A stretch of DNA of 64,000 nucleotides from Psammoneis japonica (GCA_008632985.1 QPGO01000036.1:62001-126000); one strand, 5' to 3'; shown: positions 1 to 44,439, counted from the stretch's first letter. Notes: generated from the sequence alone by a model not told the origin. Numbers and translations: made by a program.

Positions 1-1025
1 ATGATGTGATTCTTCGCGAAAGTTACCGTGCGGTGACACTCACGGACTGAATCCAGTCCATGCGTCTACTCGAGCTACTACTCTATGGCATCCTAGTGGG
101 GGTCTAGCTGGTGCCGCTGGTGCCCACACCAAAGAGACAAACCCACAACAAAAGGCAAAAACAATGGTCCTCAACAAAGTTCCTAAGAATGGCCACAGTT
201 AAATGTGGGCAATCTGTGAGTCACACCACCCAAAATGAGAAGCAAGACCCCCCCTCTGGGTGCCCTCCTCCTGCCTGCCTTGTCCCCCTGCCCCCTCCTG
301 ACAACACCATCACCGCAGCTGATCCAACACAACTGAGAATGTTCATTGGTCAAATCAGCTGGAGTTGCAGCATCAAAGATGGGAAGTGGAACATGCCACA
401 TTGCCAAAAACCAAAACACTTGATGAGGATGGCCAGCCAGAGTTTTGGACTTTCTCCGCCAATGCCAAGGGCAGCAACACAACCCCAGTGTCGGGTTTGA
501 TTTGAAGCAAAACAACACAAAGTGTCAACTGCCACCCTTGGAAGAAAAAATTTCAAAAACCATGGTTTGCATCCAAAGAATGTGACGAAAAGAAGGAAAG
601 GAGCCTTGCTGAGTGAATGAGCAGGGACAATGACAACTTCCACACTCTCTGTTGAACAAACCATTGGGGAAGCTTTTGTCAGACAAGGGACAAAATGCAC
701 TCAAAAGAAGGATTTTGCTGAGCTTGTAGAATGTCTCAGCAAAGCACCTGAATGCACGAGCTTGGAGACTTCCATTGATGCCAACATTTGTGGCCCACAA
801 GCTGCGCCATCATTGCACATTGTGAAGGAATGGGGAGGAGGACAGGGCAGCACCTTTGAGGATCTGCTGCATGGTTTTTTGGACTGAGAACTTGGGCATT
901 TGTCTGAAAACTGGTCCTTGATCTCTCAGCTCCTTGGCCCATCATTTTCCTCAAGCTCAAGCTGCCAGGAAAACACTGCAAGGCCAACAAAGGACCACGA
1001 TGAGAGTTTCCACTTGAGGGCCAAC

Positions 1026-1459
1026 TGCAGCATGCATGCAGACAAAAGGTTATTTTTGTCACGCCCTTTGTGACATTTAAACTGTAACACGTCGCCGTGA
1101 TACATTAACTCTTATTAGTAGCTGTATATTGCACTCCTCCCCATGTATCACGCGCAGAACTAATGTGCACTGACACTGCACGTTTTTGGCGGAACAGTGT
1201 GGGTACGTACAAAGGAACATACAGAACTGCACAGAGTTTTACGCGTTCGACAGTGATCAACGTTGCTGCAGACAACTCCCACTCAGGGTTTCGAACCCCT
1301 GGCCTCCTGCCTAATGGTCACGCATTGAACCACTCCGCTATGAATTCATAATGCAGCATGCATGCAGACAAAAGGTTATTTTTGTCACGCCCTTTGTGAC
1401 ATATAAACTGTGACACGTCGCCGTGACACATTGACTCTTGTCAGCAGCTGTGTGTTGCA
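1026..1459 (-). mobile_element. TRIM-like miniature LTR retroelement (108-bp LTRs at 1026-1133 and 1352-1459, 4-bp TSD CAAC)
   Basis: Two 108-bp direct repeats, each TG...CA. CAAC flanks both ends (1022-1025, 1460-1463). Purine tract GGGGAGGAG on the minus strand next to the left LTR. Element absent from copy B, which has a single CAAC. Confidence 0.9.
1277..1348 (-). other. tRNA-derived segment with Pol III A-box and B-box inside the TRIM
   Basis: Minus strand reads TAGCGGAGTGG (A-box, 1340-1330) and GGTTCGAAACC (B-box, 1297-1287) at tRNA-like spacing. A full cloverleaf is not convincing. Confidence 0.7.
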
Positions 1460-2816
1460 CAACCTCTTCATCAGCAGCAACACAGCATCACAGCAACATT
1501 TGGTTTTTTGATGCACATGGGTGCACTCACATGGCACCAACCAGTGAAACAAATGAGCTGTGTTGTGATCTTCCAGCTGTGCAGATTGCTGATTTTAAGG
1601 TTCAGCTCTCCATCTCCAGTTCTCTGAATGGGACAAAGAAGCTGCAGTCTCCTCCAGAAATGCCTCACCTTGATCTGCCTCTTCCAAGCCAGAGCACTCT
1701 ACTTGCTGATGACTTGTTGCATTTTTCAGGTCCATCCTTGGGGTTGCTTTTGTGCGGTGCATCGTGCGGCATGTCACACAAAGCTGCTTCAACCACGACC
1801 AGATTTGAGAAGTTTGTTTTGGTCAATCAGCTCGGAGCCACTCCTTCATCCCAGCAGAGGCCACAGGGCCTCATTTTTCTTCCAATCAAATCATCAACCA
1901 GCAAAAAGCAGCCACAAGTGGCTGACAATGATCTGACCTCAGCAGATGCACTGCACCCGGTGCTTCTGGCATGTCAGAAAATGACAGAACTCCCCTCTTC
2001 TTTGCACCAGATCCTTTGTTGTTGTTTCCTGCTTGCCCTTGTTCTCTGCAATGTTCAGAAGAACAGAGTCCTGACACTGTGGACTGCAACAAACACGGTG
2101 GCTGCATCTTGTTCCATTGCACCCTCCATGATGAAGAAGAACATTGATGTTGTTTGACATGCATTTGGCATGCAGGAAGCATCCACAGGCGGTGTCTTGA
2201 TCATGCACAATGATGGCAATGACAATGAAACATCCCAAGTGCCACAAAAACTGTCCAGTGCTGTGGGCACCTTCTTTTTTGACCCAGGCTGCACCTTGCA
2301 TGCAGCCACGGGCTTTGGCTGTGGCAGGGGCCCAGCATGTGTGCTTGACCAATTTGCCAACCTTGGTGGAATGTGGCATTCAATCCAATTTGCTGTGCAA
2401 TGGGGCTGCATTTGACAGTGATGATGGTGACAACAATGCAAAAGTTGCAACAACCATGTTGGGTTGGACACGCCCGGTGCCAACCCATTCAATGAAACAA
2501 ACATGGGACTCAATTGTTGCCTCCAATTGCCTCTTGTTGCAGCGCTTGTGTCAAAACACAATCTGCACTGTGGATGCATTGCCATCACCTGCAACACAAT
2601 TTCTCTTCACCTCTCAATGCCATGTCTTAAATGAACAACAAACAACTTTGGAACAAGTTTTGTGGGGGTGACTCATGTCAAACACAAATGGCATTGCAAG
2701 TGCCAGGCACACCATGTTGCTTGAATGAGATGGTGCTGACAAGTTGAACAGCTGCAGTGAATTGTTCTTGTGGCATGTGAAGTGGCAGTTGGGGCACCCA
2801 ACTTGAGAGAGCATGT

Positions 2817-2851
<35 letters not shown>

Positions 2852-2884
2852 AGGGAGGGAGAGAGGGAGGGAGGGAGGGAGAGA
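2817..2884 (+). repeat. (GA)n / G-run / (GGGA)n microsatellite (copy B at ~34672-34732)
   Basis: Read directly from the sequence; length differs between the two duplicated copies. Confidence 0.95.
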
Positions 2885-3268
2885 CACACGCTCATTTTGC
2901 AAATTTGCTTTCTTCTTTTTGTGCAAAGAAATGCAACAATGGGCACAGGATGGGGCTTCTTGTTGTAGAAATTTCTTCTGGCATGAATGCACAAGCAACA
3001 AGCATGATCCATTCACTGTCTGGTGACTTTGTTGCAGCAGACAGCAACAAAAGGGGATGTCCATCCATGCAAGTGGCAGAACGTGCGCATCCAAAAGTGT
3101 GGCTTGACTGCTTGGGTGCACTTGCAGACACTGCCAAATGGCCAAAAATGAACAACATTAATCACACTGAAGAGCAGACAGATTTGCAATCAAAAACAGT
3201 GCATGCAAATGCATCAACACAGGAAAGACAAGCATGTGGCACATGGTTTTTAGTTGAAGTCAGTCCAT

Positions 3269-4640
3269 CTAAATGCAATGACACATGGCCCACCCAAGTT
3301 TCCTCCTTTGAAGACACAGCCATTCACAGACTGCACAAAAAGGCCCTGGTGGTGTTGCACCCATGCTGGGTTTGTTTTCACAACTGGCATCACAAAAGGA
3401 TGGGCATGTGCCAATGACTGCATCTGTTGGAAGTTTCAAACCCCAAGCATGCAGATTGTGATTGAATGCTTTGGCACACTCAAAGATGTCGCCAATGTCC
3501 TTCACAGAAGAAACATCCCAGACAGCAATGTTTGCATTGAACTTTTCTGCTTTTCTGAAAGTCCAAGCCATTTCAGTGACACCGCTGACATCCCACTTTG
3601 AAATGTCCATCCCACTTTGAAGTGTCAGTGGTGAAAAAGATGGCCTTGCAGATTGTCCAACTCATTGCAGTCACAGAGGAGAAACATTCCAACCAAAAGC
3701 AAATGTCTCCCTGGACAAAGTGTGGCACTCCACTGAAAAATTGTTCATCTCTGTGACACTTGACACACCCCAGTTGGAGATGGAGCTCCAATTGCCTCTG
3801 TGGTGCTTTGCAGCCTCTTCAGAAATGTCGCTCAAAAATTCTCAACTGAAGAGGTGTCCCAAGTGGAAAGATCACCACCCCAAAGCTGTCTGGCATGGCA
3901 AAATGTGTTTCTCATGACAGTGGTCACACTGGACACAACTGATCTCCATGTCCCTTGAGACCTTGATTGACTTCAGATGATTCAAACATGGAAGACATGT
4001 CTGTAACAGATGCAACATTCCTCTGTTCTCCAATGGGTTGATTGAAAATGGGAAACCACAGAACATGCCAGACATGTCAGTGACTTGAGCATCTTTCCAA
4101 GAAGACAATTCCTCACTGAACTTGGTCCCCCAAAACAAGTTGCTGCTGTCATCAACTGATGAAATGTCCCAATCCTTGAGTGAGAGATTGAATTGGGCTG
4201 CTCTCTTGAACATGGCATGCATTGTGTGCTGGCTTTGGATGCATCCCATTCATCAGTCAATTGACCAAAGAATGCTGCTCCATGGAAAATGCCACTCTCA
4301 TGTCTGTGACTGCACTGGCATCCCAATCACTGATCAATTGATTAAAGCTGGAGGCTTCCCTGAACATTTCAGACATGTCTGTCACCAAACTGACATCCCA
4401 ACCACTGGGGCTTTGAATGAAGGGCTGGGCCTTGTAAAACATGTGTTGCATCAATGTGGCGGCACTCACATCCCACCCCTGCAAGGGTTGGTTAAAAAAA
4501 ATCTGATTTTCAAAGAGATCGTGAAATTTTGTCACCTTGGAGATGTGCCAACCCTTGCCAAGGCTGTGTTGGGCCAAGACAGTGGTGTTGTTGGCACTTT
4601 CAAAGGCACCCAAGACTTGGACAAGTTTTTTGCAAATTTC
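3269..4640 (-). pseudogene. BspA-like / DUF285 repeat surface protein, degraded (copy B ~35117-36490)
   Basis: Repeated WDVSxVTxMxxMF / FNQxLxxWDVS motifs (WDVSGVTEMAWTF, FNQPLQGWDVS, WDVSLVTDMSEMFREASSFNQ) scattered over several frames. Confidence 0.85.
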
Positions 4641-4999
4641 AAAACAAGGACAGCCTTGCAGTCCCACACACAAAGTCTTTGGGATTGATGGCAGTGTCAT
4701 GAAACCTCCATTGTTGCTGTTGCTGTTGTTGGGATCACTGTTTTTGGGGCCACCATTGCCATTGTCTCTGCCACCATTGGGGTCACCATTGCCATTGTTT
4801 TCACCCCTGCTGGAAGGATTCAGTTTCTTTGGTTTGCTGGATTGGACCAAGTCAAAAGTGGAATGGCAGTGTTCACAAGAATGGATGCTCAAGCTGCTCT
4901 TGGATTGTGGCAAAATTGCCAAAAGTCAAGATGAGTGCTCTCCAATCTGGGAAGCAGTGGTGCTGTCAATGGGGTCATGTTGCAGGTGAAAAAGTGTCT

Positions 5000-6819
5000 T
5001 GCTGAACCCACAGATTTTACCATGCTTGCCAAGACACTGGATGCAGCCATGCAGATTTGCAATGTTCTTGCTGTGGACTTTGAGAGCTGACTCAAGGAGC
5101 TGACTCAAGGAGTCACTCAATGGACCCGTGCCACTGAGTGTCATCTTGCTTTTGTCAGGCATCTCTTGGACATGTGTGCCATTCCTGTCATTTGGGATTT
5201 GCGCAATTCACTCACCTCCATTGTTGATCAAGACTTGACGCTGGAATCCAAAGAACACATCATCATTCAAGAGGGCTTTCATGAAGAATTAGATGCCAGC
5301 AGGGAGCAATGCAAAAACCTTGGCAGTGTGCAACTGTGCCATCACAATGTGTCGTGATTTGCACTGACATGGTGCTCACAACCACAGCCATTGCTCTCTT
5401 CTAACATGCAGATCTGCTCATGTTGACTGCGGGCCAAATTGGTGACAAGCACGCTGAAGCAACAAGCATTTGAAACCAGAACACAGTGCAGTTTTCATTC
5501 TGCAAGCAGGATTTCGCACGGAACTTGAAAGACACCACTTGCCACCCCCATGCCCTCACTGAAAGCTGAAGCAAACAACATTTTGTCCCCAGATGCCAAT
5601 GTGCACTTGGATCTGCCACCAGATTTTGATTTTGTCTTTTTCCATTGAACAAAGCTTTGCTTCAAGGATGACAAGGTTTGAACTCTTGATCAAGAGAATG
5701 GGGAGTTGGATGCCACCATCAAGGACTCCATCATTGTGGTCATCACAGAGCTTGAAGAAGACATTCTTGATTGTGAAACAGAAGTTCAAAGTGCCTTTGG
5801 AGCACTTGCTGAACTCAATTGCATTCTTTCCTTTGCATGCTGCACTGCTGACAATGACTGCACTGGGCCCCAGTTGCTCCCCATTGACCAAATGTGTGTT
5901 CAAATCAAGAATGACAGTCATCCGTTGCAAGAACTCATTGTAGATGGAGAATTCATTTGGAACAACACAAGCATGAATGGGGAACAGAGTCATGTCAATC
6001 TCATTGCTGGACCAAACTTTGGTGGCAAGAGTTGCCACACTTGTCAGGTTGGAATGCTTGTGCACATGGCTCACATTGGATGCTGCCTTCCCTGTGACTC
6101 TGCCAGCATTTCCATGGCAGATCAGATTTTTTGTGTGCATTGACACCGCTGAAACTTGCTTGGTGCCCCACAGCAGCTTTCGGGATGATCTGATGCACAG
6201 GTGGCTTCTGTTCTTGGAAGGAGCACCCCTTTGTTGCTTGTGCTCATTGACAAAGTTGGAAAAGGTGGGCACAGACTCTCTGGAGGCATGCTTCTGGCCA
6301 TTTGACACTCAGCCCATCTTGTTTTCCTTGTGTGCTTGCATCGCTGAAGGCACAAGCACAGTTTTGGCAGTGGCAATTGAGAATCTTTCTTGCATGAAAG
6401 GCAAAATCATTTGTGCAACCCATTTCCTGGAAGTCTTTGGCTTGGGATTGCTGCGGGACAGTGCAGACAGAGTTTGTGCCCACCAAATGATGGCACACAT
6501 TCCAGAGTCAAAGAGCAAGGACAAAGAAGAAGACTCTGGTGCAGCACCCTTGTTCAAACTGGAGCAAGGCATTGCTGGGTTGTCTGCAGGGCTTGTGTCT
6601 GCCAAGAAAGCCTCACTCAAACTGGAGCAAGGCATTGCTGAGTTGTCCACAGGGCTTGTGTGTGCCAAGAAAGCCAACACAAACAAGAAAGTCCCAGCTG
6701 GAGCAAAGGACATCCTTGCCACTGCCAAAGATGGGTGCACCACGCAACTGTTTGAAGAAAGCATGAATCTCCCAGAGCCAAAGCCAGAGGTGAAGGATGT
6801 CTTGTGCATGTTTCTGTGA
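5000..6819 (+). pseudogene. MSH5: MutS-family ATPase, most like MSH5, degraded (copy B ~36850-38668)
   Basis: AELNCILSFA, HPLQELIV, Walker A GPNFGGKS, QVGMLVHMAHIGC.LPCDSASI...DQIF, ATHFLE and PLFKLEQG match MutS domains III-V. Frameshifts and stops present. The 5' boundary is approximate. Confidence 0.75.
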
Positions 6820-9499
6820 GTCAACTCATGGGCAAATGCCACAGACAAGCAACTTCACTTGCTGGAATGCATGCTTGCTGCCATTTCCATCCCACAGCAG
6901 GGGCATCACAGTTGGGGGCAGCTTGCGCAGACAACAAGGAGACAGGACCAAGACGTGAACAAGCAAGGTGGGTCAATCAAGGGATTTCCATTTTTTTTTT
7001 TGTGCTTCTTGTGTGGGAAAAGGCAGCACTGGCAGATGAGAATGCTGCAGCCCAGTTTCATAATTGAAGAGGCCTCCCCATCACAACAAGGTGGAGCAAG
7101 GGTGTGCTGAACCTTTTGCACACAGCTTCAATCACAAAAAATGGTGCAGGAGCTCTTGTGATGGTGTGGCATCTCTTGTTCTCTGGCATCAAAGTCAGTG
7201 AATGCAATCAGCAGGCTTCTTGCATGTCAGATGTGAGCAGCAGGTCTTGCATGGTGCTGCCCAGTCAGAGTGCAACATCCACGCACAGCACAAAGTGGGT
7301 CACCTCTCTGTTGAGATTGTGCAATGGTGCAGAGGCTAGAAGATGCGGTGTTGACAACAAGATGCTCAATGCGGTGGTGCCAAATTTGTGGGCAGATTGT
7401 CAACCACACTTGCTGCTGCACTGCAGTTGGCACTCTCATCTTTTTGGTTCCAGCAAAAAACACAAACAAAGCAAGATGTGTGTGAAAAGATTCCAGCATG
7501 GCTGCCGTAAACTGAAAAGCCCTTCACACGCAAGGTGACAATCTGACTTTACATTTTGGGGAGACTGCAGAACAATGTTCTACATCAATGTTTGCAGCAG
7601 AGCACTCTGCCGTCACCAAGAAGATGCCAAATCTGGCATCAACAATTGTGTGTCCCAGGCCAAACATGAGCAACAATGAAGAGAAAGAATGTTCTAAGAG
7701 AGGGGAGCTGTGGCAGCTCCTCTCGTGCTTTCACCATTTGCACGTCAGCTGGGCAATTTGTTGCATTGGTGTGGACAGAGAGAAAGTGGCATCTGCGTCA
7801 TGGAAGGGGCAAGCAAAATGCATGACAGGTGCACTGCCAATCTTTTGGGATGGGCTGTGCTCCTCCAAAACCAATTTGTTCAATTGAGTGACATCTGCCA
7901 TCAGTGTTTGAGTGGGGGCCTGGGTCTGTTTGAGTGGGCTTGGCTCCTTGTTGCAGCCACAAGGTCAAAAGTGTCAGGGGCATGATGTCCAGCTGCAAGG
8001 TTCCAAATGCTGGTTTTGCCACGACAATGATGATTTCTTTCTTCAAGAGCAAAAATGCAGCCCTGCAGTGACTGAAGTGTCTCTTGCATGGTCAACAAGC
8101 ATGTGCTCAGCAGGCCAAAGCCAAGACCAAAGCCAGCCACAACTCACAGCAACAAAGCCAGGCTCAACAGCTTGGGTGTGACAGACAGCCTCACACTTGG
8201 CAGCCACAGAAATGCTTCCATGCCAGGCTGAGTGACAAGAGGGACACACTGCATCTGCAAAGGACATGGTTGAGCCCCCGTGCTGCATGAGAATCCAGAA
8301 CACCTTGCAATGGTTGACAAAAGAAAGAGCTGAGAACAGAAAAAAGCCCAGCGCCAACAACAGACCCCAGACAAAGCTGGTCATCATTGAAAACCACATG
8401 ACAAACCTCACAGTCCCCAAGTGGAAAGAAAGCTTAGAGGATGTTTTGTCTTGTTGACCCTGTGCATTTTCGTCATCTCACGGTGACGCCCCTTCCAGCT
8501 GATCCCAAGAAGCTTCTGCCGCACTTGACGGTGCACTGGAAGTGTGGGCCAGCCGGCACCGGCTTGGCTGGCAAAGGAGTGACAGCACCACAAACACAGA
8601 TTTGGTTTTTTTTTGACCCTGTGCATTTGGTGCACCTCTCAGTTCCTCTGATGGGCAAAAGTGGTGGCAATTGGCACAGCTTGCCACAGCAGGGCAGGGC
8701 AGTTTGGCAACCTCTTTCTGCAAACAGACATCGGCTCAGCTTCTGACCACAAAAAAGCAACAAAAGCATGATGCATCAACAGCCATGGCTTGAACCAGCA
8801 ATGCTTGGGACAGTTGGCCTGTGCAGTCACTGCACAGAAGGAGGCCTCATGCAGGCCAAGCTGGGAGGTGGGCACTGGGCACATTTGCAAAGAGTTTGTT
8901 CCTGTTGTTGACAGCTGAGAGCCATTTCTGAGTCATTGCAGTTTGCTGTTAAACACCTGGTTGCATTGGCTGTGTGCTCACTTTGCACACATGTGTGAAA
9001 GCTCTTGTCCACATGTGAAGAGCTTCTGCTCCAAGCTCATCTTGGTGCTCAGCAAGCATTGCACAGCGCAGAACATTGTGCACACTGCTCACCAGCAACT
9101 TCAGGGGTCAATCAAAGTGCAACCCACCCAATGAGTGCACCTCACTTTCTTGCAGCTGATGCACAGTCATGCCAACATGTCCGCTCAGAAGAATGAGCAC
9201 AAATGATCATGCAGGCTTGAATGGCATGTGCCTTGAGAATGTCACGCATCTCCTCCTGCTGTGGGAGCCCTGCAGCAATGCCTGGTTTTGCTGGTGTCTG
9301 TCAGTTGTCATCAGCACATGCTGCATGGTCCTCCCCCATGACAAGAGCCACAGACCACCAGATGTCCTGCTGGCAATGGGGGGCACAATCTGCCACAGAT
9401 TGGGCACATTTGTCACCCCACCACACCATCTTGCATTCATGGCATGCTGTTGTCATTCACAAGGACAACTCTGACAGAGCCTGCATGACTGCTGTGTCA

Positions 9500-10449
9500 G
9501 CCCTGTGCTTGGGTTTTTGTTTCCATTTGACAAGCATGATGAGTTGCCTCATGGTGGGTGGAACATGTCCTCTGGCAAGCAGCACAACTGGTGCTGTGCA
9601 CGGAGACAGAATGTCCATGCACAGTTGGTGCAGGCAGCTCCATCACTCATCATGCCAAAGAAGGGTTTGACAGCACAAGTTGTTGACAATTTCTGTGGGG
9701 GCTTGAAAAGAGGAGGGCAGAGTGGCTGCCAGCCATGTCCAATTCACCATGTCCAGGATGTGGTGCTCAAGCTCAAAGGTTTCATGTGGACAATGCTGCC
9801 AGATCTCCACTTGGGGTGCCACCACATTGGACTTGACGGTGACAGCCAAAAGTTTTGTGCTGTGCTTGTGTGTCTGATGCAGGTCCCAACAATGGGGGCT
9901 CATCCAATTCACCCGACATCTTTCAAGAAAATGTGCCAGGGCTGTTTGAAGACTTGTTGTTTGCATGTGCATGCCCAGATGATCTTCTGGCAGCCACTGA
10001 AAGTGCTTCTGAAGACCACCACTCAGAGAAGCTGGCAGCCATGCTGCAGCTTGCAAGCAATGCTGGACTCAAGGTCAATGGAGGAAAAAGTGCACTTTTG
10101 AAAAATGCAGCTGGGGTGCCAGAGCCACACAGTCAATCAGGATGGGACACACTTCATGGGCACAATGAGCTGCAGTTGTGACAATGACCAAGACACTCTG
10201 AAATGTTGGACCACCCACCAGACAACTCAGCACAGGCAGGACTTCAAAATGGAGGCAGATGTGTGTCAAGGACAAAGCACTTGAAGCCAAAAAAGTGTGT
10301 TGTCAGACAACTTCTCATTGGCAACTTCAGGTTTCAACAAAGCTGATGCCTCCAAATGTCAACTCAGAGCAGCAACATCACAGGACAACAAACCTGTCAT
10401 TGCACCTTGTTGCAGCAGAAAGCTTGACAGTTGTTTGCAGTTGAACTGC

Positions 10450-10494
<45 letters not shown>

Positions 10495-11100
10495 GAGAAA
10501 GAACTGCTTGCCACTGTGGAGATGTTGAAAGAATTTCAAACAACATCCTTTGGTCAGCACACAACTGCACCTGTTGATCACAAAATTCTTGCATGGAAAG
10601 TGCTCAACAACTCCAAATGTTGTGCACTTTTGCTTGATGTGCAAAAAGTGCAGCTCCAAAGAATTGCAGCACAGCATCATGTTGTGCCACAACCCCCTGG
10701 TTTGCAGATGCCCCCAACTGTCTGGCACTCAAAGTTTGAAGTTTGAGTGTGGTCTGCTGACAGTGCTGGAGATGCCATGTCTGCTGCATGAAGTTTTTGC
10801 ACTGGAGACTGCAATGCCACCAGCAAGCTCCAAGCAAACACACAAAGAACAACAGAAGGACTGGCGCCTGCTGCTGAATGTGTTGTGTGTTCCAGTGTGC
10901 ACTCCATCCATGTGTGCCAGAGACATGATTGAGAAAACACCTGAGTGTGAGCTGCATTGCAAGTGGCTGCACCATCATGAAAAGGCATGCACAGAAGCAT
11001 CTGCTGCCTGGCACTTCCACTGGCTGGCCCAGCATGAGGTCTGCACCCAACATGTGCCAAACATGTGCTGCACAAGAAGATGAAAGACTGGAGGACACAG
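9500..11100 (+). mobile_element. Ty3/Gypsy pol remnant (RT and RNase H), degraded (partial copy B ~39951-41200)
   Basis: AAPSLIMPKK; PCPIHHVQD (PYPIPKIQD); DLHLGCHHI (DLNMGYYHI); SNSPDIFQ; ACPDDLL (AYIDDLL); AGLKVN; DASKCQL...SRKL...CTTT..EKELLA (DASKYQL...YTTTEKELLA). Boundaries approximate. Confidence 0.85.
10450..10494 (+). repeat. (ACA)15 microsatellite inside the Gypsy RNase H YTTTE motif (longer and interrupted in copy B, ~40540-40603)
   Basis: Read directly from the sequence. Confidence 0.95.
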
Positions 11101-11601
11101 TGTGGAAGAAGCTGTCAGAAAAAAGCATCTGAGATGATCCTGTGGGAGACCTCACATGTGTGGATGAAAAGCAGGCCCTTGGAAGCTCAGGCTCAGTGGG
11201 TTGACTGTGTGTGCCAAAGACTGACTTTGGCTGGAGCCTGGGCCACATGATTGAGTGTTCCAACCAAAACTGACCCAGCAGCTTGGCAGCCATTTCCAGA
11301 TCTAGCTTGTTCTTTTCAACTGCATGCTCCACATCAAAATGTGCTGTGAACATCAAAATCTTTTCAATGTGGCTGTGTGATTCTCCATGTGGAATTGCAT
11401 GATGTGTCTCTTGCAAAAGTTGCCACATGGCAGCAGCATGTGGTTCTTTCTGACAACTTCTTTCAACTTTGCAGTTGCAGAAGCAGCACCAGAATCAACT
11501 GTGGGAAATGGGCATGACATGCGTTGTGCAGAAAGTGGCAAATTGTTGTGCACTTCTTGCCAAAATGGGCCTGTTGCATTCAAAGGATTTTGACAGCCAA
11601 T

Positions 11602-12063
11602 GAAGCACCGCCAGAGGAGGAGAGAAAGCCGCTGGCAGAAGTGGCGGTGGTGAGCACTGAAGAAACAACCACTCATGTCATTGTCGTGGATCAAGGAAAC
11701 TGCGGCATGACATGTGCTGCAGCACACGTCACAGTGTCCTTGCTCTTTTTGTGCACACAAAACAGCTCTCAAATGGCTTTTTTTACATCGGCAAATGGAT
11801 TTGTCACCGTGCTGCCAGCACCCTTCATGCTGGTTGACCTTGAGCCTTGTGAAGCACCTTCTGAGGAATCTTTGACTGCTGAAGAAGCGCCGCCAGTGGA
11901 GGAGAGAAAGCTGCCAGCAGAAATGGCAGTGGTGAGTGCTGTGGAAACAGCTCCTTGCATGATTGTCGTGGAGCAAGGATGCTGCGGCATGAGGTGTGCT
12001 CCAGCACATGTCACAGCACCCTTGCTCTTTTGGTGTGTGCAAGACAGCTCAATCAAATGGGCT
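11602..12063 (+). repeat. Diverged ~280-bp tandem duplication; related sequence at ~46190-46480
   Basis: gaagcaccgccagaggaggagagaaagccgctggcagaa (11602) versus gaagcgccgccagtggaggagagaaagctgccagcagaa (11884), with matching downstream blocks. Confidence 0.8.
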
Positions 12064-12782
12064 TCTTTCTGCTTTGTGCTCCTCAATGCAGCCGCCAACC
12101 ACAGTCATGACCGGCGTTGTGGTTTTCAAATTTAGCAGAGGGGGGAAACATGGGGCTGGTGCACCGACTGCAGCTACGAAAAAATGCGGGGAGACTTTGA
12201 AGGAGCTCCAAAAGCGCTGTGTCCTGGGTTGCACTTACACTGTTTTCACTCTTTTGAAACAAGAAAATGAAAAATTGAAAAAGAAGGAGTTGGAGTGGAA
12301 AGTTGCAACTGGTGCTGATGATTGTTGGACCGCATTGTGCTCAGCTGCAAAGGGTTTGGCAACGGAAGAGATGCTCAAGGCACTGCAAACAAAAGAGAGG
12401 AGAGCCAATCCCATGTCCAAGTTTGAGCTGGTGGAAGCACACATGGTGGGGGGAGATGATGTTGTGTGTGACAGTGACTGGTGTGGAGTGGGTGGGGAAA
12501 AATGGGGAAACAGTGTTTCAGTGCATGTCGCGCAGTCAAACAATGTCAACAGTTCCAGCACGTGCACCATGCTGTGTTCTGTTGATTGAATGTTGTTGCA
12601 GGATGTCTGTCAACTGTTGTGCCAGGTGTGCCAAACTGCATTTCATCTGTTGCCCATTGTGGCAAGTGTGACAAACTCCACTCTAATCTGTTGTGGTGCG
12701 TTAAAAATTGAAGTGCCTCTTGCCAGCTGCCACAACAAGCACTTGCCTCCACCGCCTCTTGCACTCTGAGAACAGGCGCCAG

Positions 12783-13596
12783 TCAATGCAACTCATTTTC
12801 CTTCTCAAGAGAGGCCACTGAAGCGCAATGCTTGGAACCGGGGACCTGACAACAATGACAAAATGAGCGAGCCATTGCAGGAGTGACACTGTCAAGAGCA
12901 TCAAGGTGGTGCTCAACCCACCTTGTGCTCCCATGTTGCTCAAAGTGTTTTTTGCAGCAACCAAACATCATTTCAATGGGATTCAAGTCAGGGCAGCATG
13001 GGGCAGTGAAGACAAAAGCAGCTCTCTTTTCTTCAATGATGTCCATGATGCACTGTGAGAGGTGAGTTGATGCATTGTCAAGCACAACAATGGACCTTGG
13101 CTCTCCCTCCTCTTCAAAGTTGTCGGTGCAAGCAGCCAGTTTCTCTTCAAACTAAAGTTCAAATTGCTCCTGATCAACTTCTCCTGTGAGTGGGTTGTTC
13201 TTTTTATCTCTTGCATTGCCCCCAAGGAACAATGTCACAGGCCTCCTTTGCAAATCCATCAATGTCACAAGCCACAAGCAATGAATGCTGAGCCTGTTTG
13301 TTGATCTCAAAGGATGTCAATCAAACAGGAGTTGTGTCTCATTGAGACCACCAGTGCCACCATCTTGATGAGTTTCAATCTTTGTGAGACTCATCCAAGC
13401 ACAGTGGCATTTCAGGTCAATGCACTGCAGCCTTCAATGCTTGGAGATGTGATTCCCTTTCTTTCTTGTCTGTTTCCATGGCCTTGTTTGTCACAACTTG
13501 AAGGGAGCATCCCACTTCCTTTCCAAGTTCCTCATGTGTCTGGGCTGGGCTCCATTTCTTGTGAGCAACCTGGCCCAGCACTTGGGTCACTCGCTC
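12783..13596 (-). mobile_element. Tc1/IS630-like DDE transposase remnant (copy B 42889 to ~43900)
   Basis: LDNASTH...FTAPCCPDLNPIEMMF matches the DNAxxH...PYSPDLNPIE signature of IS630/Tc1 transposases, with Tyr replaced by Cys. Confidence 0.85.
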
Positions 13597-15132
13597 TAAT
13601 CTCGTCCACAGGCTCTTCGACGTACTTAAAGTATCTTTCTTCTGCCCAAATCCATGGCAGCCACACACAAGCCAGTCCTCAAGGATGTCAATGCAGCCGA
13701 CAAATGCTCCGCTCTTAATCCAAAGAGCACGCTGTGCAATTGCTTTATTGGAGCATGCTGCAAAACAGTCCAAGATGTTTCGCCGGATCGAGTTGGCGTC
13801 TGAAACAGAGCAACGAGGTGTGCAGCTGAGAGAACAAATCATCCAGGGAAGGGATGTCGAAGGTCATTTCGACCTGGATCTCTGTTTAATCTTACCTGTT
13901 GCGTTTGTCGTTCTCATTCTCGCACAGCCATTTACTGCATACGTCAAGAGTAGTAATGTTGATGGACGAATCGTAACTGTAGCAAATAACACGTGTGCCG
14001 TAGCTTGACACGCGTTGCAGCCAGTGCAGTTGGCGAGCTTGTCCTTGTACAATCTTGTCATCGCTAACAACCATACATATCGCTACAGGCTTCATCCACA
14101 TAATACCTTGTCCATCCATCATGAGTCTTTTTGTATTTAGATCGATTCTAGTCCTGACGTCGAATGAGATCTGTGTCGCAAAAAATAAAGCCGACGGCAC
14201 CCGAGTTGCTCTGTTGTCGCCTTGCCTTCGCTTGTACCTTCTACTGTACTTGCGTAGCAATTGTTCTGAGTTGATTGCTCCTCTACTAGAAGTTGAAAAC
14301 TATGAAATAAGCCCATTTCAAAACATGGCCGTTTTGTTCAATGCCAAATCGCTGCCGACAACTCGCCGGTCTCGATCACATGTCATTCACGGTTCACGAA
14401 GGAAAAAGGCCGATTCATCATTTCCAACTGGTTCACAGTTTCCTTACCTCATCTTTTTTGTTTCTTATGGACACAAGGACTCATTGATTCTGCTGTTTTG
14501 AGTGAATTGTCCTCCAAACTATCCTTACACTCTAGAGTTGCTTCGTACTTGTTCCAAAAGGGCTCCAGCTCGACTTCACCGTCACGATACCCGTGTCTTT
14601 GTACCCGTTCAAAACGTTTAGCATGATGCAAGGGACACGCATACATGCGATTACCATTCTTATATGGAACAAAGCCCTTTTTACACGGCGTAAAGTCAAG
14701 TGTACGTTTACCGGGAGAAGCAAATTTCAGAGTGGCTTGCACAATCGCTCGGCCTTGAAGTGTGTCACTGCCAGCCGATTCTATGTAGTGACCACCACCA
14801 TACAAGTCCCCGTTCTTCGTTGGATATCCACAAATATAACCCCACGGAACTTGTTCAGTACAACTCGATTTAATTTTATATCATTCACTCGGAAGAATTC
14901 CGAAATCAAGAAACTTGCTCTTGTAAGTGTTGCGTGTTGTTGTTGCAGACTTGATACCTTCTCGCTTAGCTTCTAGTGCTAATAACCTGGCTGAAGAACG
15001 CTTCTTGTTTACGGGTATTACGGGTATTCCTTGGGCACATGTAGCGTGATGTGCCATGACTTGTTGCGGATGTGATGTTGTCTTGGTTGCGGCCGCTACT
15101 TCATCCGCTACTTCATCCAGCACGTTGCTCAT
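13597..15132 (-). pseudogene. Multi-exon gene of unknown function with an in-frame TGA (14883-14881), 3'-truncated at the repeat junction
   Basis: Normal TA/CG composition. ORFs 14881-15225 and 14449-14805 are in the same frame. Candidate GTAAG donors at ~14447 and ~13895 and acceptors near 14290 and 13827 link further ORFs. No domain recognised. Confidence 0.4.
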
Positions 15133-15414
15133 GGTGAATGGCGAGAGCGGTGCGGTGCGGTGCGGTGAAGATGTTGTCTGATGTGTGCGGCGGCGCGCGG
15201 CGCATGGCCGTAGGCATAGGCTCAAGTTGAAGAAATAGGCTGGTATGTCGCCTCAACGGAAAAATCTTTAACATACATCATTTAAGATAATTTTATATGT
15301 GCCGATTTGTAACCTTTTCGCCGAATATTTGGTCCGTCATCTATCCGTCAGATTGTTGATTTTCGTGACCTCTCATGCCTTTTTCACCGCGACATACAAA
15401 GCACGGCACAATGG

Positions 15415-15446
15415 CGCCGTCACGCCGTCACGCCGTCACGCCGTCA
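15415..15446 (+). repeat. (CGCCGTCA)4 tandem octamer between two divergent gene remnants
   Basis: Read directly from the sequence. Confidence 0.9.
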
Positions 15447-15530
15447 CGATTTTGAGCACAAGCGACCGATGCCCCACCTTCCTTTGTGAAAATGCCGTCT
15501 CTTTTACGCCATGGCCGGGGATCAGGCTCA

Positions 15531-16294
15531 ATGTCGGAAGACCGGATTAAGCAGCTAGAATCGGTGGGTTTTGTATGGAATGTGCACGAACAATCCTGGG
15601 ATAAGCATTATCGAGAGCTCGAACAGCTTTACAAAGAACGTGGACATACGCTTGTACCGAATGTAAATGTATCTCCTCTTGGAAAGTTTGTGGCTGGAAC
15701 AACTCAACAAGCTCGAATTCGTTTGGGATGCACGCGAAGCGACTTGGATGGAACGCTACAATGAGCTCTGCAAATATCGAGATAATCACGGTAATTGGTG
15801 AGTAATACTTGGAAGAACCGTATTTGTTTCGGTTGTTGGTATCTGCATGCAAGAGTTGAGTCGAGCTGACTATTATTTCTGTTGTCTCTTGTATGCATCT
15901 CAGTTCGGTTCCAAAAGCATACGATTCTAATCCTGAACTCGGACGCTGGGTGGATAACCAACGATTTCAATATAGGCTTCTCAAAGCAAATAAAAAAGGT
16001 GGTGGGAACAAAACAGTCTCGTTGTCAAAAGAGCGCATTAAGTTATTGAACAAGATTGATTTCATCTGGAATGCCTATGATGTCGCTTGGGTGCAAAAAT
16101 ATCTGAGATTATCGGAATTTGTAAGAATAAATGGTCCGGTCAGTGGTGGAAGTGTTCCTAAAGACCCATCGCTTGCGAACTGGATCCGGAAACAGCGGCA
16201 GCTATATAGAAAACGAATCGAAGGAGAAAAGGTGAGCTTGACGCAAGAGCGCATTGAAGAACTGGAGAAGCTTGGGTTTTCCTGGGAAATGTGA
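15531..16294 (+). pseudogene. Helicase-associated (HA) domain repeat protein; intron 15798-15903; internal deletion/frameshift near 15690
   Basis: RIKQLESVGFVW...WDKHYREL...GHTLVP; LEFVWDAREATWMERYNEL...HGNC|SVP...LGRWVDNQR; LANWIRKQR...RIEELEKLGFSW. GTGAGT...CAG intron. The first repeat jumps frame after GKFV. Confidence 0.8.
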
Positions 16295-17699
16295 GAAAGT
16301 CTCTTGAAAAGCTGTTTTCAGTGTCTTGAAGGGTATGACCGAGTCGATCGGAGTACGAGTTGCATGTGGACGGAAACGATTGCCATGCTTTATTGGTGTC
16401 ATCAGTCTTTCGAAGGCCTTCTTGCTAGTGGCACTTATGCCGCACTCTAAGTGTGCTGCAAGTGCGGGTTAGGCGGCTCCGGCTCTAAATAATGTAGATC
16501 TGTTTTTTTTTTGTTAAAGCGACTGTAGCCACAAGAAAATCTCCAACTTCTTGACGCAAAAGCAATCTGTGCCGCATTGACCAAGCGCAAAGGCAGTCAG
16601 CAAGGCACAAGCTTTCAGCTGCTGGAAATCCACATTGCGCAAAATGAGGGAAACATTCAAGGTTTTGAAGGTCGGCACCCAACAAATTGCGATGGAAAAG
16701 ACACCCATGCAATGGTGCTCCACAAAGGCAAGGCATGGCAGCGCCATGTCCATTTGAGGACAGTTCATACAAACATCAATCAAGTCTCACCCAAGTGCAT
16801 CCTCAAACAGTGTCATTGTCTGACCTGCTTCCACCACATCCTCTTGCACTGCAAGTGGGGAAAGGAACTCAAATTCTGTGCAAGGTTGCATCCTTGTGCA
16901 GCTTGCTCCAACTTTGTGGTCATTGTTCATGAACACCACATCAATCAAGTGGCATGCAGCACATTTTCATCCCAGTTGGGCAACTCAAAGCCATTGACAA
17001 ACACCTCATGCCAACTGTTGCACTGCTCAATGTGCACCAGGGAAAGCCACCATGAGACTTGCTGCCCCATTTCAAAAGCCACAAGAGCTCAGATGCTGCA
17101 CAGTGGAACAACAAATGCAAGGCATCTGCCAGGAAACAGCAGCTTGTTCATTTCTGTGAGGGTTTCTTGGACAGTTTCTGCTGGTTCTGTGGTGGTGTGC
17201 CAACTCTTCTTGCAGGGCCATGAGCACCAGATTGCTGTGCAAAGCCTCTGACAAAGCAGTTGCCTTCTTCCAAGTCAGCATGCAAGTGTGCCTTAAAGAC
17301 TCACCATTTTCACTTTTGCTGTGCAACTGTGATCATTCTGGCAGCAGTGTTTCTTTTCTTGAACATTGACTGAGAGGTGTTCAACCATGTGATGTGCTGC
17401 ATTGCTGGCTTTGCTTTTATCCCTGCCAGGTTTGGGTCAGAATCAAGGTGCAAGTGTTGTCACAGCTGGTTTGTGCACCACTTCCCTTTTTCCATGGTGG
17501 CACATGAGCTGGTGCTGCAATGACATGTTGTGAAGGGCAGTGAAGCAGACCAGTCTTCTGCTGCTCCAGCTGGCCTCACAGTGTTCTGACAGCTTGGTGC
17601 CTCAGTGTGGTGCAGGTGAGTGTGGTTGGGACACAAGTGAGGGCTTTCCACCACTTGAGCATCAACCACCTTGAAACCTGCTAGTGTAGTTGACAAGAA

Positions 17700-18640
17700 C
17701 TCAGTTGTGATGTTGGCATCAGAAGCAGCTCTGGTTGTTTAGCATTGAGCAATGATGAGATCCATTGGAACAAGAAATCAGTGTGGGCACGAGATGTTGT
17801 GTGACTCCATCAGACCATTTTCAGTTTGGTGCATCATGGACATTGACTGACATCTCACAGCACTCTCTCCAGATTTATTTTCTCTGATGCCTTCATTCTT
17901 GAGCAAATCCAGAGCATGTCACAGCCAGCTGTTTTGCAATTGAGACAGCTTGAACAGCCACCAGGCAAGCTGGCAATTGGCATTGCAACAGTCCAGCAAA
18001 TGTCAATGACAAGCCTTGTGGCATCCTGCAATGAAAAAACAAACACCCCAGTGTGGACCCCATCCAAAAAAAAGAGAAGAGCAGTGCAGTGCTGAAACAA
18101 AAACAACAATGTCAAAGCATGCAATGATGCTGCAAGCTCTGCAACCACCATTGCAGTCCATTGATGCACATGATGCAGAACACCTTTCACACAATTGAAG
18201 ATTGCTGTGTTGTGCTTTTGGCATTTCCATTTCTGTTGCAAAGGTTCAAATGTTGAAAATTGCCATTGAAGTTGGTTGCATGGGGTGATGTTGCCTCAAG
18301 ATCCCATCAAAGGATGGAGCTCTCAAGCCTTTGCTGTCTTCAGAGTGAAGTGTCACTAAAAAAAAAGGGGGGGGGGGGGGGGGGCACACTTGAGGAGACA
18401 AAAAGAAAACTTGCAAGTCATGCCAAATCAAAGCTCTGCACAAGTGAAGACTTGCCACACCATGTTGCTGATGTGACGGAGCCCCAAACCTTGCATTCCA
18501 TCAATGGCATGATCTGCTTGGCAAGCTTCTTTTGCTGTTTTGCAGATGAGTGCTGCTGTCTGTTTCAACAAAACCATGACCTTGGGGTCAAGCAAACAGG
18601 CAACTTGTTCCTGTGGTCAAAAACAGCAAGATGGCACTGC
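17700..18640 (+). repeat. Hypermutated copy of the repeat that is intact at ~29560-30500
   Basis: Colinear blocks, e.g. gttggttgcatggggtgatgttgcctcaag versus atcggttgcgtagggtgacgttgcctcaag, and ccatcaatggcatgatctgcttggcaagc versus ccgtcaacggtatgatctgcttggcaagc. Confidence 0.9.
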
Positions 18641-21600
18641 TGACCAACAAAATCCAGACAAAGAAGAGATTGAAGTGGGGCTGCTCAATGACTGTGTGAA
18701 AAATGGCCAAATTAAATGACCAAAATGAAACTCATGAAAAAGAATCTGCCTCCTCTGAATAAAAAAAATGAACCCAGTTTTCCTGCTGGGCATCAGACCT
18801 CTCTCTTCAGCCAACACAATGATCAAAGGCTCTTTCCTGCAATTTCCCACCTGGGACAATCCAGTGCCAGTGCCCAAATGAGCCATCTCTGGCAACTTCA
18901 ACATCAGCAAGAGCCAAGCATCATTTGATGATGCAATGTGTGCATCTTTGGCACCACACACCAATCATTTCTAGGGGAAAATGTGGCCAATCTCAGATTT
19001 CAGCAGAGTCAACAAAAGAAAGCATTGGTTGCTCATTTGCTTGTTGGGTGTGCTTGTCAACTTGCACAGAATCTAAGGGATGATGGGCTCACACTTCAGA
19101 CAATCTTGATTCCCAGACAAATCATCACACACCACATCCCAGCTGTGGCCATCCCAGATTCCCAGATTAAATTAAAGAATGGTGGACAAAAGATCCTCAA
19201 GCCTCTTGGAGGGGCTCACAACTGAAGAAATGAAATTGGTAGATGGTGCCAGAACATGGGGTGGTTGATCTCTTCTGGGTTGAGTGGCAAAGCAAGAACA
19301 AGCTTCCACTGGCAGAAATGATGCACTCTGCATCTGGAACCTTTGTCACAGAACATTGGTGCTTGGGAATGGCACACACAAGGTGGAGCTTTCAGCACTT
19401 GGGGCAGACACGTGCCTTGCTGCTGCTGCTGCTTGATTGACAAAATGAGGTGATCTCCTTTTGCACCTTTTTCTCTTTTTTGCTGGTGACAGATGGGACA
19501 CACATGCCAGAAAACCCCAACAATTGGATGACAAGCACTGCCGTGCATGCCGTGTGGCTCTGTGTGGCACTGTGTGGTGCACAGCACATGAATGTCACAA
19601 AAAAAATGACACCAACTGTGAAAGATGATGCAACACTTGCTCAGATGCAAAGGTTGTTGTTGAGTTGACAAATCAATCACAGGAATGACTTGACTTTTGA
19701 TCACACTGACACATCAACATCAGGCACACAGCATGACAGACCACCACACATGAGGCACAGGGCACTGTGCGCAGGAGACAGACGTCTGGACTTTTTGAAC
19801 AAAGTTGCAACTTGGTGTGGCACCATTTTGCTGTGCCTGAAGAGCAAGAAGTTTGTCATGACAAGCCACACAAAACACATGTCCACCCCCCAGCCTGCAA
19901 GCAATGTCAGCCAAAAACAAATGCAACCAACAAGAAGTGTGGGGCTTGAAGGTTTGAGTGAGCTGTTTTTTTTTTCTTTCAAAAAGGCTCTTGTTTGAGA
20001 CGCTGCTCTGTCTTCTTTTGTCCATCTTCCTCACCATCTGCTGTTTGAATCTTCTCTGATCTCTTGAAAATCCAAAAACAGAGCAATGAGCTTCTGTTGG
20101 TGGTGAAAACAATGTGCTCTGCATCTTTGTCACAGAGTTTGGTGCCTGGCACTGTGCTGTGTGAAGTTGCTGGACTTTTGGTGGAGTGAGCAAGTCAGAC
20201 ATTTTCCATTCTTTGCAAGTGATGGATGGAGCACACACACCAGAAAACTTCAAAAGTTGGACCATGTGGTGTGGCACACACCCATGTGGCACACAAACAC
20301 AAAATGAGGTGTGCACATGTGAAATGACAAATGACAGTGGAGTCCAAGCTGCAGAGTGCAGCATCAAGACTGGTGCGCAGCTGTCAGCACACCCATTGAC
20401 ACTGGACAGTGTTGTTGAGCTCTTTTGTCTCTCTCTTTTTTGTGATGCAGCTGCACTCAATCCACCTGATCCACCCAAGCATTGCAATGTGGATGTTGGC
20501 ACAAGTTCCTCTTCCCAATCAGCATGCTCTTCAGTGCCAAGAAGGGTGGGCCAGTCATTGTTTTGCAACACAGCACATGATGGCCAAGCAAACAAAGCCT
20601 TCCTCAGCATGCAATGAAACTCCTGTCAGCTTGGGCCACACATCAGGAAGCCCTGATGCCAAGAGCCAACCCAATGTTCAGCTGAGTGCACCTGCAAGCA
20701 CTCACACACACAAAGAGAAGAAGAGTGACCATGGAGACATCTCAGTTTGTGGCTGGTGAGAAAGAGCAGCCAATGCCATCATGACAAGTCATGCTTGTCC
20801 AAAATGCCAAAAAAGCTTCTGCCAGACTGCCAAAAAAGCAACTTCAAGCCACACCCTGAGCAACACCACACACCTTTTGCAGCACTGGACATGCAATGAA
20901 TGGCTCAGCAAAGAGGCCAAGGCAACCCCACATGTGATGGCAGCATGACCAACAGACAAACGGCAAAAGCCACACTCAGAAGCATGCAGCTTTGTCAGTG
21001 TTGGTTCATGAGCGAGCATCACAGCAGTGGGGGCAATGCACGTTGTCCTGCAAGGCATGCAAGCATCCCATCCTCTCAGCAAACAACAAACAAGTGCCAG
21101 GAAACATGCGCAGCAGCCAGCAATGTGTGCAGGTGCAGTGCACAGGCAGTGGGGAAACAGCACTGGTCTGTTCCTGGTGTGGAGGAAGCAGTGACAGAAG
21201 GGGGGAGTTTGCCATGACAAACCACACAAAACCCACCAAAACACACCCATCACTCCCAATGACCTAAAAATCAACTAAAAAATGCAACCAACACATGTGG
21301 GGCTTGAAGCCTTGGGCAAGTCATTTTGCTTAAAATGACAGTGAGATGGTGCTCAACACCAGAAAGGCAACCTGTTGCAAGAGGATGTCATGCAACACAG
21401 GAGCACAAGGAAGATTGTCATTTTAACCAGAGCTCATTCCACATTGAACACAAGCTTGCTGTTGTCCAAAGAGAACAGTTTGCTGTTGACACCTCTGTTG
21501 GAAACAAAGAAGTTTGCAGAGTTTGATGACCCCCCTAAAGCTGTCAGTCACAATGAGCTCCGGCATGGCTTCAAGACAATGTGAGTCTAACTCACTGCTC

Positions 21601-27539: not shown

Positions 27540-27995
27540 AAAATCTGGTTTGCCAAGACAACAAGGTGCTGCACCCACCCATGACAAGGCTTGCACTGCC
27601 CAACCACAGTTCTTGGCATGCCCCCAGGGACCCAACTGAGCCCACCATCACCATTTGCCAGGCAACTTTGGACTTGCCCCATCGTGCCATTGTCCACCTT
27701 GTTTCTGCAACAGGGCTGATGTGGGGCAAAATCCTGGTCTGCCAGGACAACAAGGTGCTGCATCTGCCCAAGACAAGGCTTTCACTGCCCAACCATGGTT
27801 CTTGGCATGTCCCCAGCAACCTGACACAGCTCTTCGTCAGCCGCCACATTGCAGTGCAACTGTGGACTTGCGCACTGTCTCATCATTGTCTGCCTTGTTT
27901 CTGCAGCATGACTGATGCGGCACAATCTTGGTCTGACAACAAGGTGCTGTGTCCACCCAAGGCAAGGCTTGCATTGCCCAACCACAGTTCTTGTT
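27540..27995 (+). repeat. Three diverged tandem units with 189-bp period
   Basis: acaacaaggtgctg...caaggctt.cactgcccaacca..gttctt starts at 27558, 27747 and 27936. Confidence 0.85.
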
Positions 27996-30589: not shown

Positions 30590-30882
30590 AACACGCCATC
30601 AAGCAAAATGATTTGTGGAATTCCAAACAAGAGCGAGCAATCTATTCCAGAAGAAGGGCGAGCCATCCTCGGCGATCGCGGCATTCGTTGCTTGGCAAAC
30701 AACAAACACATCGTGCGAGACGACTAGTTTTAAAAGAGAGACAACACGCCATCAAGCAAAATGAGTTGTATAACTGCCAAGCAAGAGAAGACTTTCTATT
30801 ATCCACAGGAAGGGTGAGCCATCCTGGGCGATCGCCTGCGTTCCTGCTTGGCAAACAACAAACACATCGTGCGAGACGACGA
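30590..30882 (+). repeat. Two ~153-bp-period direct repeats
   Basis: aacacgccatcaagcaaaatga...gcttggcaaacaacaaacacatcgtgcgagacgac occurs twice. Confidence 0.9.

Positions 30883-40539: not shown

Positions 40540-40576
<37 letters not shown>

Positions 40577-44435: not shown

Positions 44436-44439
<4 letters not shown>

Follow-up and report, generated by a model that had tools for sequence, protein, structure and literature searches.

The terminal repeats of a 434-bp element differ almost only by TA versus TG/CA in a 64-kb window depleted of TA

The element and its insertion site

The DNA analysed here is a single stretch of 64,000 nucleotides, referred to as the window. A repeat search of the window revealed, near its beginning, a direct repeat at 1026-1134 and 1352-1460, with 92% identity and the two units 326 nt apart. 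After alignment with MAFFT, the pair was trimmed to its TG..CA ends, which left two LTRs of equal length enclosing a non-coding internal part (Table 1). A purine run, GGGGAGGAG, was read by eye on the minus strand at 1134-1142. Because this run abuts the left LTR, the element is probably located on the minus strand, and in that orientation the left LTR would be the 3' LTR. No primer-binding site was seen beside either LTR, the window carrying no tRNA for comparison. In addition, ARAGORN predicted 0 tRNA genes in the element, and Rfam gave no tRNA match there even at E<=10. In the element interior, at 1287-1341 on the minus strand, the motifs TAGCGGAGTGG and GGTTCGAAACC are found about 32 nt apart; they resemble the consensus A and B boxes of the Pol III promoters in tRNA genes. 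Within the 64-kb window no other copy of the LTR was detected by blastn (word size 7, E<=10).

Self-comparison of the window showed that the DNA around the element is present twice (host segments A and B). The region 1-1025 matches 32382-33319 at 91%, 1460-8107 matches 33316-39956 at 98.5%, and 9861-13596 matches 39951-43702 at 98.4%; over 11,091 aligned columns the two copies present 1.53% mismatch. Copy B reads GAGGACCAACCTCTTC at the place that corresponds to the element, with one CAAC, while in copy A there is a CAAC on either side of the element. The blast segments of the two flanks overlap by 4 nt at 33316-33319, and one contig of a public sequencing run (X1, see below) skips from 1021 to 1460 with 4 shared letters, which is the empty site of copy B. 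The 434-bp element was therefore genuinely inserted here, as the preliminary description of this DNA had assumed, and its insertion duplicated 4 bp of the target. A second difference between the host segments is a TA- and CpG-depleted block of 1,753 bp at 8108-9860, present only in copy A and with TGTGCT on both sides, which arose either by an insertion that duplicated 6 bp or by a microhomology deletion in copy B.

The same description had counted eight TA>TG/CA changes and one T/A transversion between the LTRs, had noted that all four CpG steps were kept in both, and had placed the changes in the outer ~50 bp of the right LTR. Our recount gave the same nine differences, and the changes occupy about 45 nt. 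The TA steps of the left LTR and their TG or CA counterparts in the right one are located at 1085-6/1411-2, 1101-2/1427-8, 1106-7/1432-3, 1113-4/1439-40, 1116-7/1442-3 and 1119-20/1445-6, and at the double site 1125-8/1451-4; the T/A transversion is at 1077/1403. Under a model of random substitution with transitions favoured (kappa 4), the probability that at least eight of nine differences are TA>TG/CA is 4e-7, and 0 of 200,000 simulations reached this value. In the right LTR, 2 of the 10 TA steps are kept, and these are the innermost ones (1377 and 1404), the eight outermost being gone; the chance that a specified 8 out of 10 are hit is 1/45. The last retained TA is at 1404-1405 and the conversion begins at 1411-1412. 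Read along the patch, the conversions follow the order TG, CA, TG, TG, CA, CA, TG, TG. The CpG steps (1062/1388, 1090/1416, 1093/1419 and 1096/1422) are the same in both LTRs, three of them inside the converted stretch. As a separate observation, the transversion gives rise to a further TA (ATAT) at 1402-1403, which is unconverted and is separated by 8 nt from the place where the conversions begin. By this single change TTTAAA becomes a TATAAA-like motif at the patch border.

Table 1. Coordinates of the features in the 64-kb window (o/e, observed/expected)
Feature	Position	Strand	Description
Target-site duplication, left copy	1022-1025		CAAC; paralogous copy B has one CAAC
Left LTR	1026-1133	minus (probable)	108 nt, TG..CA; 10/10 TA intact
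Internal part, non-coding	1134-1351	minus (probable)	218 nt
Right LTR	1352-1459	minus (probable)	108 nt; 9 differences from left LTR
Converted stretch in right LTR	1411-1454		8 TA of left LTR read as 5 TG and 3 CA; 3 CpG unchanged
Target-site duplication, right copy	1460-1463		CAAC; from comparison with copy B
Empty site in copy B	33316-33319		single CAAC, element absent
Host segment, copy A	1460-13596 (with 1-1025)		TA/CpG-depleted; paralogous to 32382-43702
Host segment, copy B	32382-43702		from self-comparison of the window
Depleted tracts	201-1050, 1405-13596, 16527-28516, 31160-49336		TA o/e 0.02-0.07, CG o/e 0.14-0.19
Depleted tract	56653-64000		TA o/e 0.10, CG o/e 0.98
Normal stretches	1-200, 1051-1404 (element), 13597-16526, 28517-31159, 49337-56652
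Fringe	16527-16690		164 bp, TA lost, CpG kept
Fringe	28255-28516		262 bp, TA lost, CpG kept
Fringe	31160-31378		219 bp, TA lost, CpG kept
Fringe	48969-49336		368 bp, TA lost, CpG kept
Depleted copy of homologous pair	17760-18625		TA/CpG-depleted; pair of 29604-30497
Normal-composition copy of homologous pair	29604-30497		homologous to 17760-18625
MutS domain V relic	5682-6140	plus	in depleted tract; Walker-A region GKSCHTCQ
Ty1/Copia-type element	56653-64000	plus	TA o/e 0.10, CG o/e 0.98
Copia RT open frame	62370-63953	plus	within 56653-64000

Loss of TA and CpG in the window

Over the whole window, the o/e ratios were 0.19 for TA, 0.45 for CG, 1.68 for TG and 1.60 for CA. The depleted tracts were called by a two-state model on TA, which was rerun on CG. 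Altogether, the TA-depleted sequence amounts to 50,557 of the 64,000 bases (79%), with o/e values of 0.02-0.10. The element differs clearly from its surroundings, since 1051-1404 has a TA o/e of 0.81 and a CG o/e of 0.93 versus a TA o/e of 0.02-0.04 in the flanks; the earlier statement that its interior keeps the TA steps is thus borne out. The tracts are local and sharp-edged. They cover relics of mobile elements (RT RNase H, DDE/IS630-type transposase) but also relics of MutS, DUF285 repeats and a methyltransferase. The stretch 49337-56652, with intact CobW, MatE and YCII frames, was spared from TA depletion. The nearest named relatives of CobW are diatoms, at 56% identity at most, other matches reaching up to 63%. 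Were this DNA part of the sequenced Bigelowiella natans genome, a match close to identity would be expected, and none was obtained. No terminal repeats were found at the islands 13597-16526 and 28517-31159, so these islands provide no additional dated insertions. An assembly gap of 184 N is present at 44483-44666, inside a depleted tract.

The losses of TA and CpG are nested in an almost strict way: depletion of TA with normal CpG extends over 9,516 bp, versus 140 bp of the opposite kind. To the first class belong the Copia element, a block of 1.1 kb (24418-25549), 18 bases at the edge of the LTR, and the four fringes listed in Table 1. Because of this nesting, TA loss either precedes CpG loss or reaches further. 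The patch in the right LTR, where 8/8 TA steps are gone and 0/3 CpG steps, is the smallest example of TA loss before CpG loss. Exact direct repeats of 17 nt at 24378-24394 and 25604-25620 surround a 1.2-kb block that is TA-depleted and CpG-normal, and the block between 24378 and 25620 may be another insertion, of intermediate age.

The comparison of the paralogous host segments added further differences. Between copies A and B, 11 of the 36 TA sites differ, compared with the overall mismatch of 1.53%, and all of them (11/11) are paired with TG or CA; four of these eleven lie at 1596-1790, beside the insertion. Among the CG sites, 44 of 106 differ. In part, the differing sites may represent TA or CG steps newly made from the abundant TG and CA, and no direction was read from them. 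When positions 1-110 were compared with 32382-32480, copy B presented TG or CA at three clean sites where copy A has TA, with the CpG steps intact in both copies. This region is a second post-duplication conversion patch, situated in two-copy DNA.

Other copies of the family and the direction of change

Of the words sampled from 1-10000, 82% are present in one public sequencing run, X1. This run probably comes from the very sample that was assembled, and hence its support is non-independent. Two further runs from the sample of X1 contain next to none of these words, and no RNA run containing them was found in the sequencing-run search. A single AT-rich metagenome contig that matched a 20-nt word of the LTR proved to be unrelated and was discarded as a chance match. 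Contigs of X1 were placed on 800-1700 (901 bases) at a likeness of at least 80%, and 893 contigs were obtained. The summed depth, an uncalibrated figure which does not represent copy number, was 8,000-170,000 over the element vs ~70-190 over the flanks. Contigs with unlike loose ends were observed at 1026 (9 contigs), 1134 (6) and 1459 (8); these ends show other insertion sites and, probably, also solo LTRs. Clearly, the family is abundant and dispersed, with varied flanks. Over 831-985 the placed contigs cover only the copy-B version, a hole that carries no evidential weight. The right flank appears in two versions with depths of 67.7 and 79.4, vs 156.6 in the shared stretch. For this reason, the flank that the preliminary description had called an already-mutated host repeat is a two-copy segment: the depletion in TA stands, but by contig depth it is not high-copy DNA.

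Relative to the window, the changes in the X1 contigs were A>G 17, T>C 9, C>T 6, G>A 5 and transversions 5. In the left LTR, the family variants were 1085 T>C in 18 contigs, 1102 A>G in 35, 1107 A>G in 33, 1113 T>C in 26 and 1114 A>G in 26, and in the right LTR 1427 C>T in 45 and 1428 A>G in 37. The loose-end consensus at 1450 reads CACA, vs TATA (left) and TGTG (right) in the window. At these same LTR sites the other letter represents 37-68% of the summed depth in X1. Furthermore, the internal TA steps at 1204-5, 1208-9, 1240-1, 1312-3, 1339-40 and 1349-50 are converted in many other copies. At the two TA steps kept in the right LTR (1377 and 1404) no family variant reached 5% in X1, which may reflect a dilution by a much deeper subfamily. 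Since no variant at these two steps reaches 5% in the family, the inner limit of the patch may be placed at 1405-1411 at the tightest and at 1350-1411 at the loosest.

The change runs from TA to TG/CA, as had been proposed from the two LTRs, and in the family TG/CA is not fixed at these sites. At five of the eight LTR sites (1085/6, 1101/2, 1113/4 and 1125-8, the call at 1125-8 resting on the loose-end consensus) the states TA, TG and CA all occur, so TA must have been the starting state. The same direction is observed in the homologous pair of normal and depleted composition: from the 47 TA sites of the normal copy 0 are kept in the depleted one, where they are found as 23 CA and 18 TG (41 TG/CA), and from the 43 CG sites 0 are kept, with 19 CA and 19 TG (38 TG/CA). 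The TG and CA steps of the normal copy, for their part, are kept at 81% and 70%.

Coding sequences lead to the same conclusion. A TAY codon yields Cys when it changes to TGY and His when it changes to CAY. For the Copia element, with domain matches to RVT_2, Pol_BBD and zf-CCHC, the RT was aligned with the top 35 of 89 homologues, and Tyr columns were defined as those with Tyr in at least 60% of the 35. In the 17 conserved-Tyr columns the window has Y in 3, C in 8, H in 1, F in 3, L in 1 and W in 1; as controls, Asp was retained in 16/17 columns and Gly in 17/20. The MutS relic reads GKSCHTCQ where solved MutS/Msh3 proteins read GKS[TS]Y[MI][RK]Q, and the Tyr residues of Msh3 covered by the alignment number four, in place of which the relic has C, F, H and C. 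The nearest named relative of the Copia RT is from the diatom Fragilaria crotonensis, and no relative of this frame was found in PDB at E<=0.01. Residues 900-2003 of the long Copia open frame gave one weak fungal match and no usable alignment. The ratio of Tyr>Cys (8) to Tyr>His (1) in the Copia RT is a possible sense-strand bias, unlike the old tracts.

The saturation of the patch could also be explained by ectopic gene conversion, in which a hypermutated family copy served as the template for the right LTR, or for its outer part, and the mutator acted elsewhere. This very abundant family includes many copies with conversions at the same sites, which could serve as donors. Moreover, the patch is saturated (8/8) while TA steps remain close by in the flank, at 1596 and 1700, it stops where homology stops, and the lone transversion is located at its border. 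Against this, the intact CAAC duplication rules out an inter-element crossover, no donor was found, and the patch abuts depleted DNA, an arrangement also seen at four other tract edges with their TA-free, CpG-normal fringes; the comparison of 1-110 with copy B revealed similar patchy conversions, after duplication, in two-copy DNA. We regard gene conversion as unlikely. Slightly less credit is given to an assembly chimera, in which only the flank-anchored bases would belong to this locus, and the interior together with the variable half of the left LTR would be threaded from unmutated copies; because of this threading, the contrast between the LTRs would be an artefact, the mutator still being real. 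The 184-N gap suggests scaffolded short-read contigs, the X1 contigs over the element are 84-226 nt long, with 217/893 fitting two places, and the stretch is spanned by no listed piece of X1. However, 158/893 contigs are at least 99% like the window, the first variable site of the left LTR is only 60 nt from unique flank, which should fall within ordinary reads, and the element should be short enough to be anchored by read pairs.

Two further explanations concern the nature of the change itself. A reverse polarity, with RIP-like C>T changes at CpA/TpG creating the TA steps of the left LTR and the right LTR being the original one, is suggested by the fact that the direction cannot be read from two sequences alone and that RIP, in the accessible part of the source, prefers CpA (PMC2621366). 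The three-state TA/TG/CA sites of the family, the Tyr>Cys/His replacements in the Copia RT and the MutS relic, and the tracts being TA-free instead of TA-rich all speak against it; besides, by eye only 8 of the 15 TG/CA steps of the stretch would have been hit, vs 8/8 TA steps under TA>TG/CA. This reverse direction is extremely improbable. If the transcript of the element had undergone ADAR-like A-to-I editing at the RNA level, with a preference for 5' U, before reverse transcription, the context would match, and the predominance of Tyr>Cys over Tyr>His in the Copia RT (8 vs 1) could be taken as a sense-strand bias. Nevertheless, a new copy derives its two LTRs from a single template, and editing before integration cannot therefore make them differ; in addition, the patch was hit on both strands (5 TG, 3 CA), and DNA that is not of retroelement origin was converted too (MutS, DUF285 and transposase relics, and gene fringes). 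Editing of the transcript is consequently a very improbable origin of the patch. A modification-dependent base-calling artefact was also judged unlikely, given that one LTR sequence yields two different readings at places 326 nt apart and that conserved proteins carry the predicted amino-acid changes.

A possible process and its relation to known systems

We consider it probable that a young TRIM-like element was inserted into a depleted segment and that, after the insertion, the edge of its right LTR underwent a conversion of TA only. In this best explanation, the 434-bp element would be a non-coding, miniature LTR retroelement of a very high-copy family. It would have been inserted into one of two paralogous segment copies already depleted in TA and CpG; afterwards, a DNA-level A:T->G:C process acting at 5'-TA-3' steps only would have converted every TA in the outer ~45 nt of the right LTR, so that the differences between the LTRs would have originated in place. 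The same process would have removed TA from 79% of the window. It would hit either strand, yielding TG or CA, and would work in sharp-edged tracts, earlier or faster than CpG decay. The likeliest chemistry would be the deamination of adenine to hypoxanthine in a TpA context, by a candidate enzyme at silenced or foreign chromatin, with a slower deamination of 5-methylcytosine following it; the deaminating enzyme, the adenine chemistry and the targeting to silenced chromatin are all putative.

In the old tracts the numbers of TG and CA are equal (1419/1419, 884/907 and 2005/1998), and along the depleted copy of the homologous pair their order is random (22 runs vs 21.2 expected). It follows from these equal counts and this random order that at each individual TA step the hit can fall on either strand. 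If the changes are fixed by replication, the order observed in the LTR patch would need at least two replication rounds. The surviving TA steps of the old tracts are followed by A in 52% and by G in 28% of the cases, vs 22% and 20% in normal DNA, and 25 of the 36 TA sites are common to both paralogs, a pattern that points to refractory YTAR steps as a secondary context effect. The preliminary description had further suggested a clustered event or a spreading inward from the flank; if there was such a spread, it did not follow a simple gradient. In copy A, TA survives in the flank at 1596, which sits in the refractory YTAR context, and at 1700, while the LTR edge lost 8/8, and the left LTR is untouched although it too abuts depleted DNA. 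The survival of these two flank steps beside the complete loss at the LTR edge would be unexpected if the change had simply spread inward.

The most similar system known is that of Bigelowiella natans, a chlorarachniophyte (Rhizaria). According to the accessible text of a preprint (10.64898/2026.01.13.699255), mutation-accumulation lines of this species acquired de novo TpA>TpG/CpA changes, with T/A>C/G only at TpA, in two integrated viral regions, at ~6e-7 per site per generation vs 3.5e-10 elsewhere; clusters of TpA-poor windows enriched in TE-type domains were also described, and its authors proposed adenine deamination at TpA. At such rates, saturation would take about a few million generations and be accompanied by ~0.2% of background divergence, which would be compatible with the one non-TA change in ~100 LTR positions. 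As far as that text goes, the hypermutation of NCLDV and virophage DNA in B. natans resembles what we observed in that A/T>G/C changes take place only at TpA, giving TpG or CpA, in local regions of foreign or TE-like DNA, with TpA-poor, CpA+TpG-rich windows clustered. The window differs in that the nearest named relatives of two of its proteins are diatoms, and in its coupled later CpG loss, sharp edges and dated insertion. Furthermore, a Rho(TpA) of 0.45 was given for the viral region, vs 0.02-0.10 in the tracts over 79% of the 64 kb. In the main text of the preprint the words 'diatom' and 'stramenopile' do not occur (10.64898/2026.01.13.699255).

As in RIP of ascomycete fungi, context-specific transitions ruin repeats and mobile DNA in place. 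RIP changes can leak into neighbouring unique DNA; they make TA and create stop codons. The process in the window is chemically and compositionally the opposite, and it cannot create stop codons. It also differs from RIP in that the copy of a high-copy element is unmutated (TA o/e 0.81) while two-copy DNA is saturated. In the part of the source available, RIP proceeds as C:G>T:A at CpA (PMC2621366). RIP was ruled out, both by its polarity, with C:G>T:A expected at CpA, and because the target rule 'all duplicated copies' fails.

The CG>TG/CA changes of the old tracts (38/43 sites) are like CpG decay by 5-methylcytosine deamination. Such decay does not touch TA; in the window it trails the loss of TA throughout, and the LTR patch shows none of it. 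Cytosine methylation takes part in the control of transposable elements, and diatoms are named among the lineages studied, at least in the text available to us (PMC9998398). The clustered transitions are of deaminase type, like those of ADAR hyperediting and APOBEC editing of retroelements, and a preference of ADAR for 5' U is stated in the accessible text of the B. natans preprint (10.64898/2026.01.13.699255). ADAR and APOBEC, however, act on RNA or cDNA, before integration and in a strand-specific manner, whereas the changes in the window are post-integration, on both strands and in non-retroelement DNA too. With regard to the element itself, the likeness is to TRIMs. These are terminal-repeat retrotransposons in miniature. 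Shared features are the 434-bp length, the TG..CA LTRs of ~100 nt, the short target duplication, the many copies, and no coding capacity, to which the candidate polypurine run may be added; unlike a TRIM, the primer-binding site is not recognised and there is a tRNA-like stretch in sense orientation inside the element.

In full-text literature searches we found no report of TpA-specific hypermutation in diatoms or other stramenopiles. So far as the accessible sources show, TpA hypermutation has been reported once before, in the 2026 preprint on one chlorarachniophyte (10.64898/2026.01.13.699255). The window presents the same TpA signature in a diatom-like genome, near saturation. Beyond what that preprint gives in its accessible text, it adds a dated insertion with LTRs that differ almost only by TA>TG/CA, the order of TA and then CpG loss, and tract edges resolved to a few bases.

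A more general interpretation, possible but somewhat doubtful, is that of a chromatin-domain-guided DNA editing defence that removes TpA, probably by adenine deamination, and is common to distantly related SAR algae of the Rhizaria and of the diatom-like stramenopiles. Such a defence would precede cytosine methylation and be independent of it, it would be saturating, and its edges would advance tens to hundreds of bases into new DNA with near-nucleotide sharpness. If this were true, the LTR pairs of a high-copy miniature element would constitute a built-in clock for its rate and reach. If the observations are confirmed genome-wide, this would be a second RIP-like, chemically opposite genome defence, testable in a group with genetic tools, and it would also explain the long open frames in the dead DNA of such genomes. 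Because TA>TG/CA destroys TAA and TAG and creates no stop, the length of an open frame is no sign of function in this genome: the window contains 143 stop-to-stop frames of at least 120 codons, the longest of them with 2,003 codons at 56650-62658.
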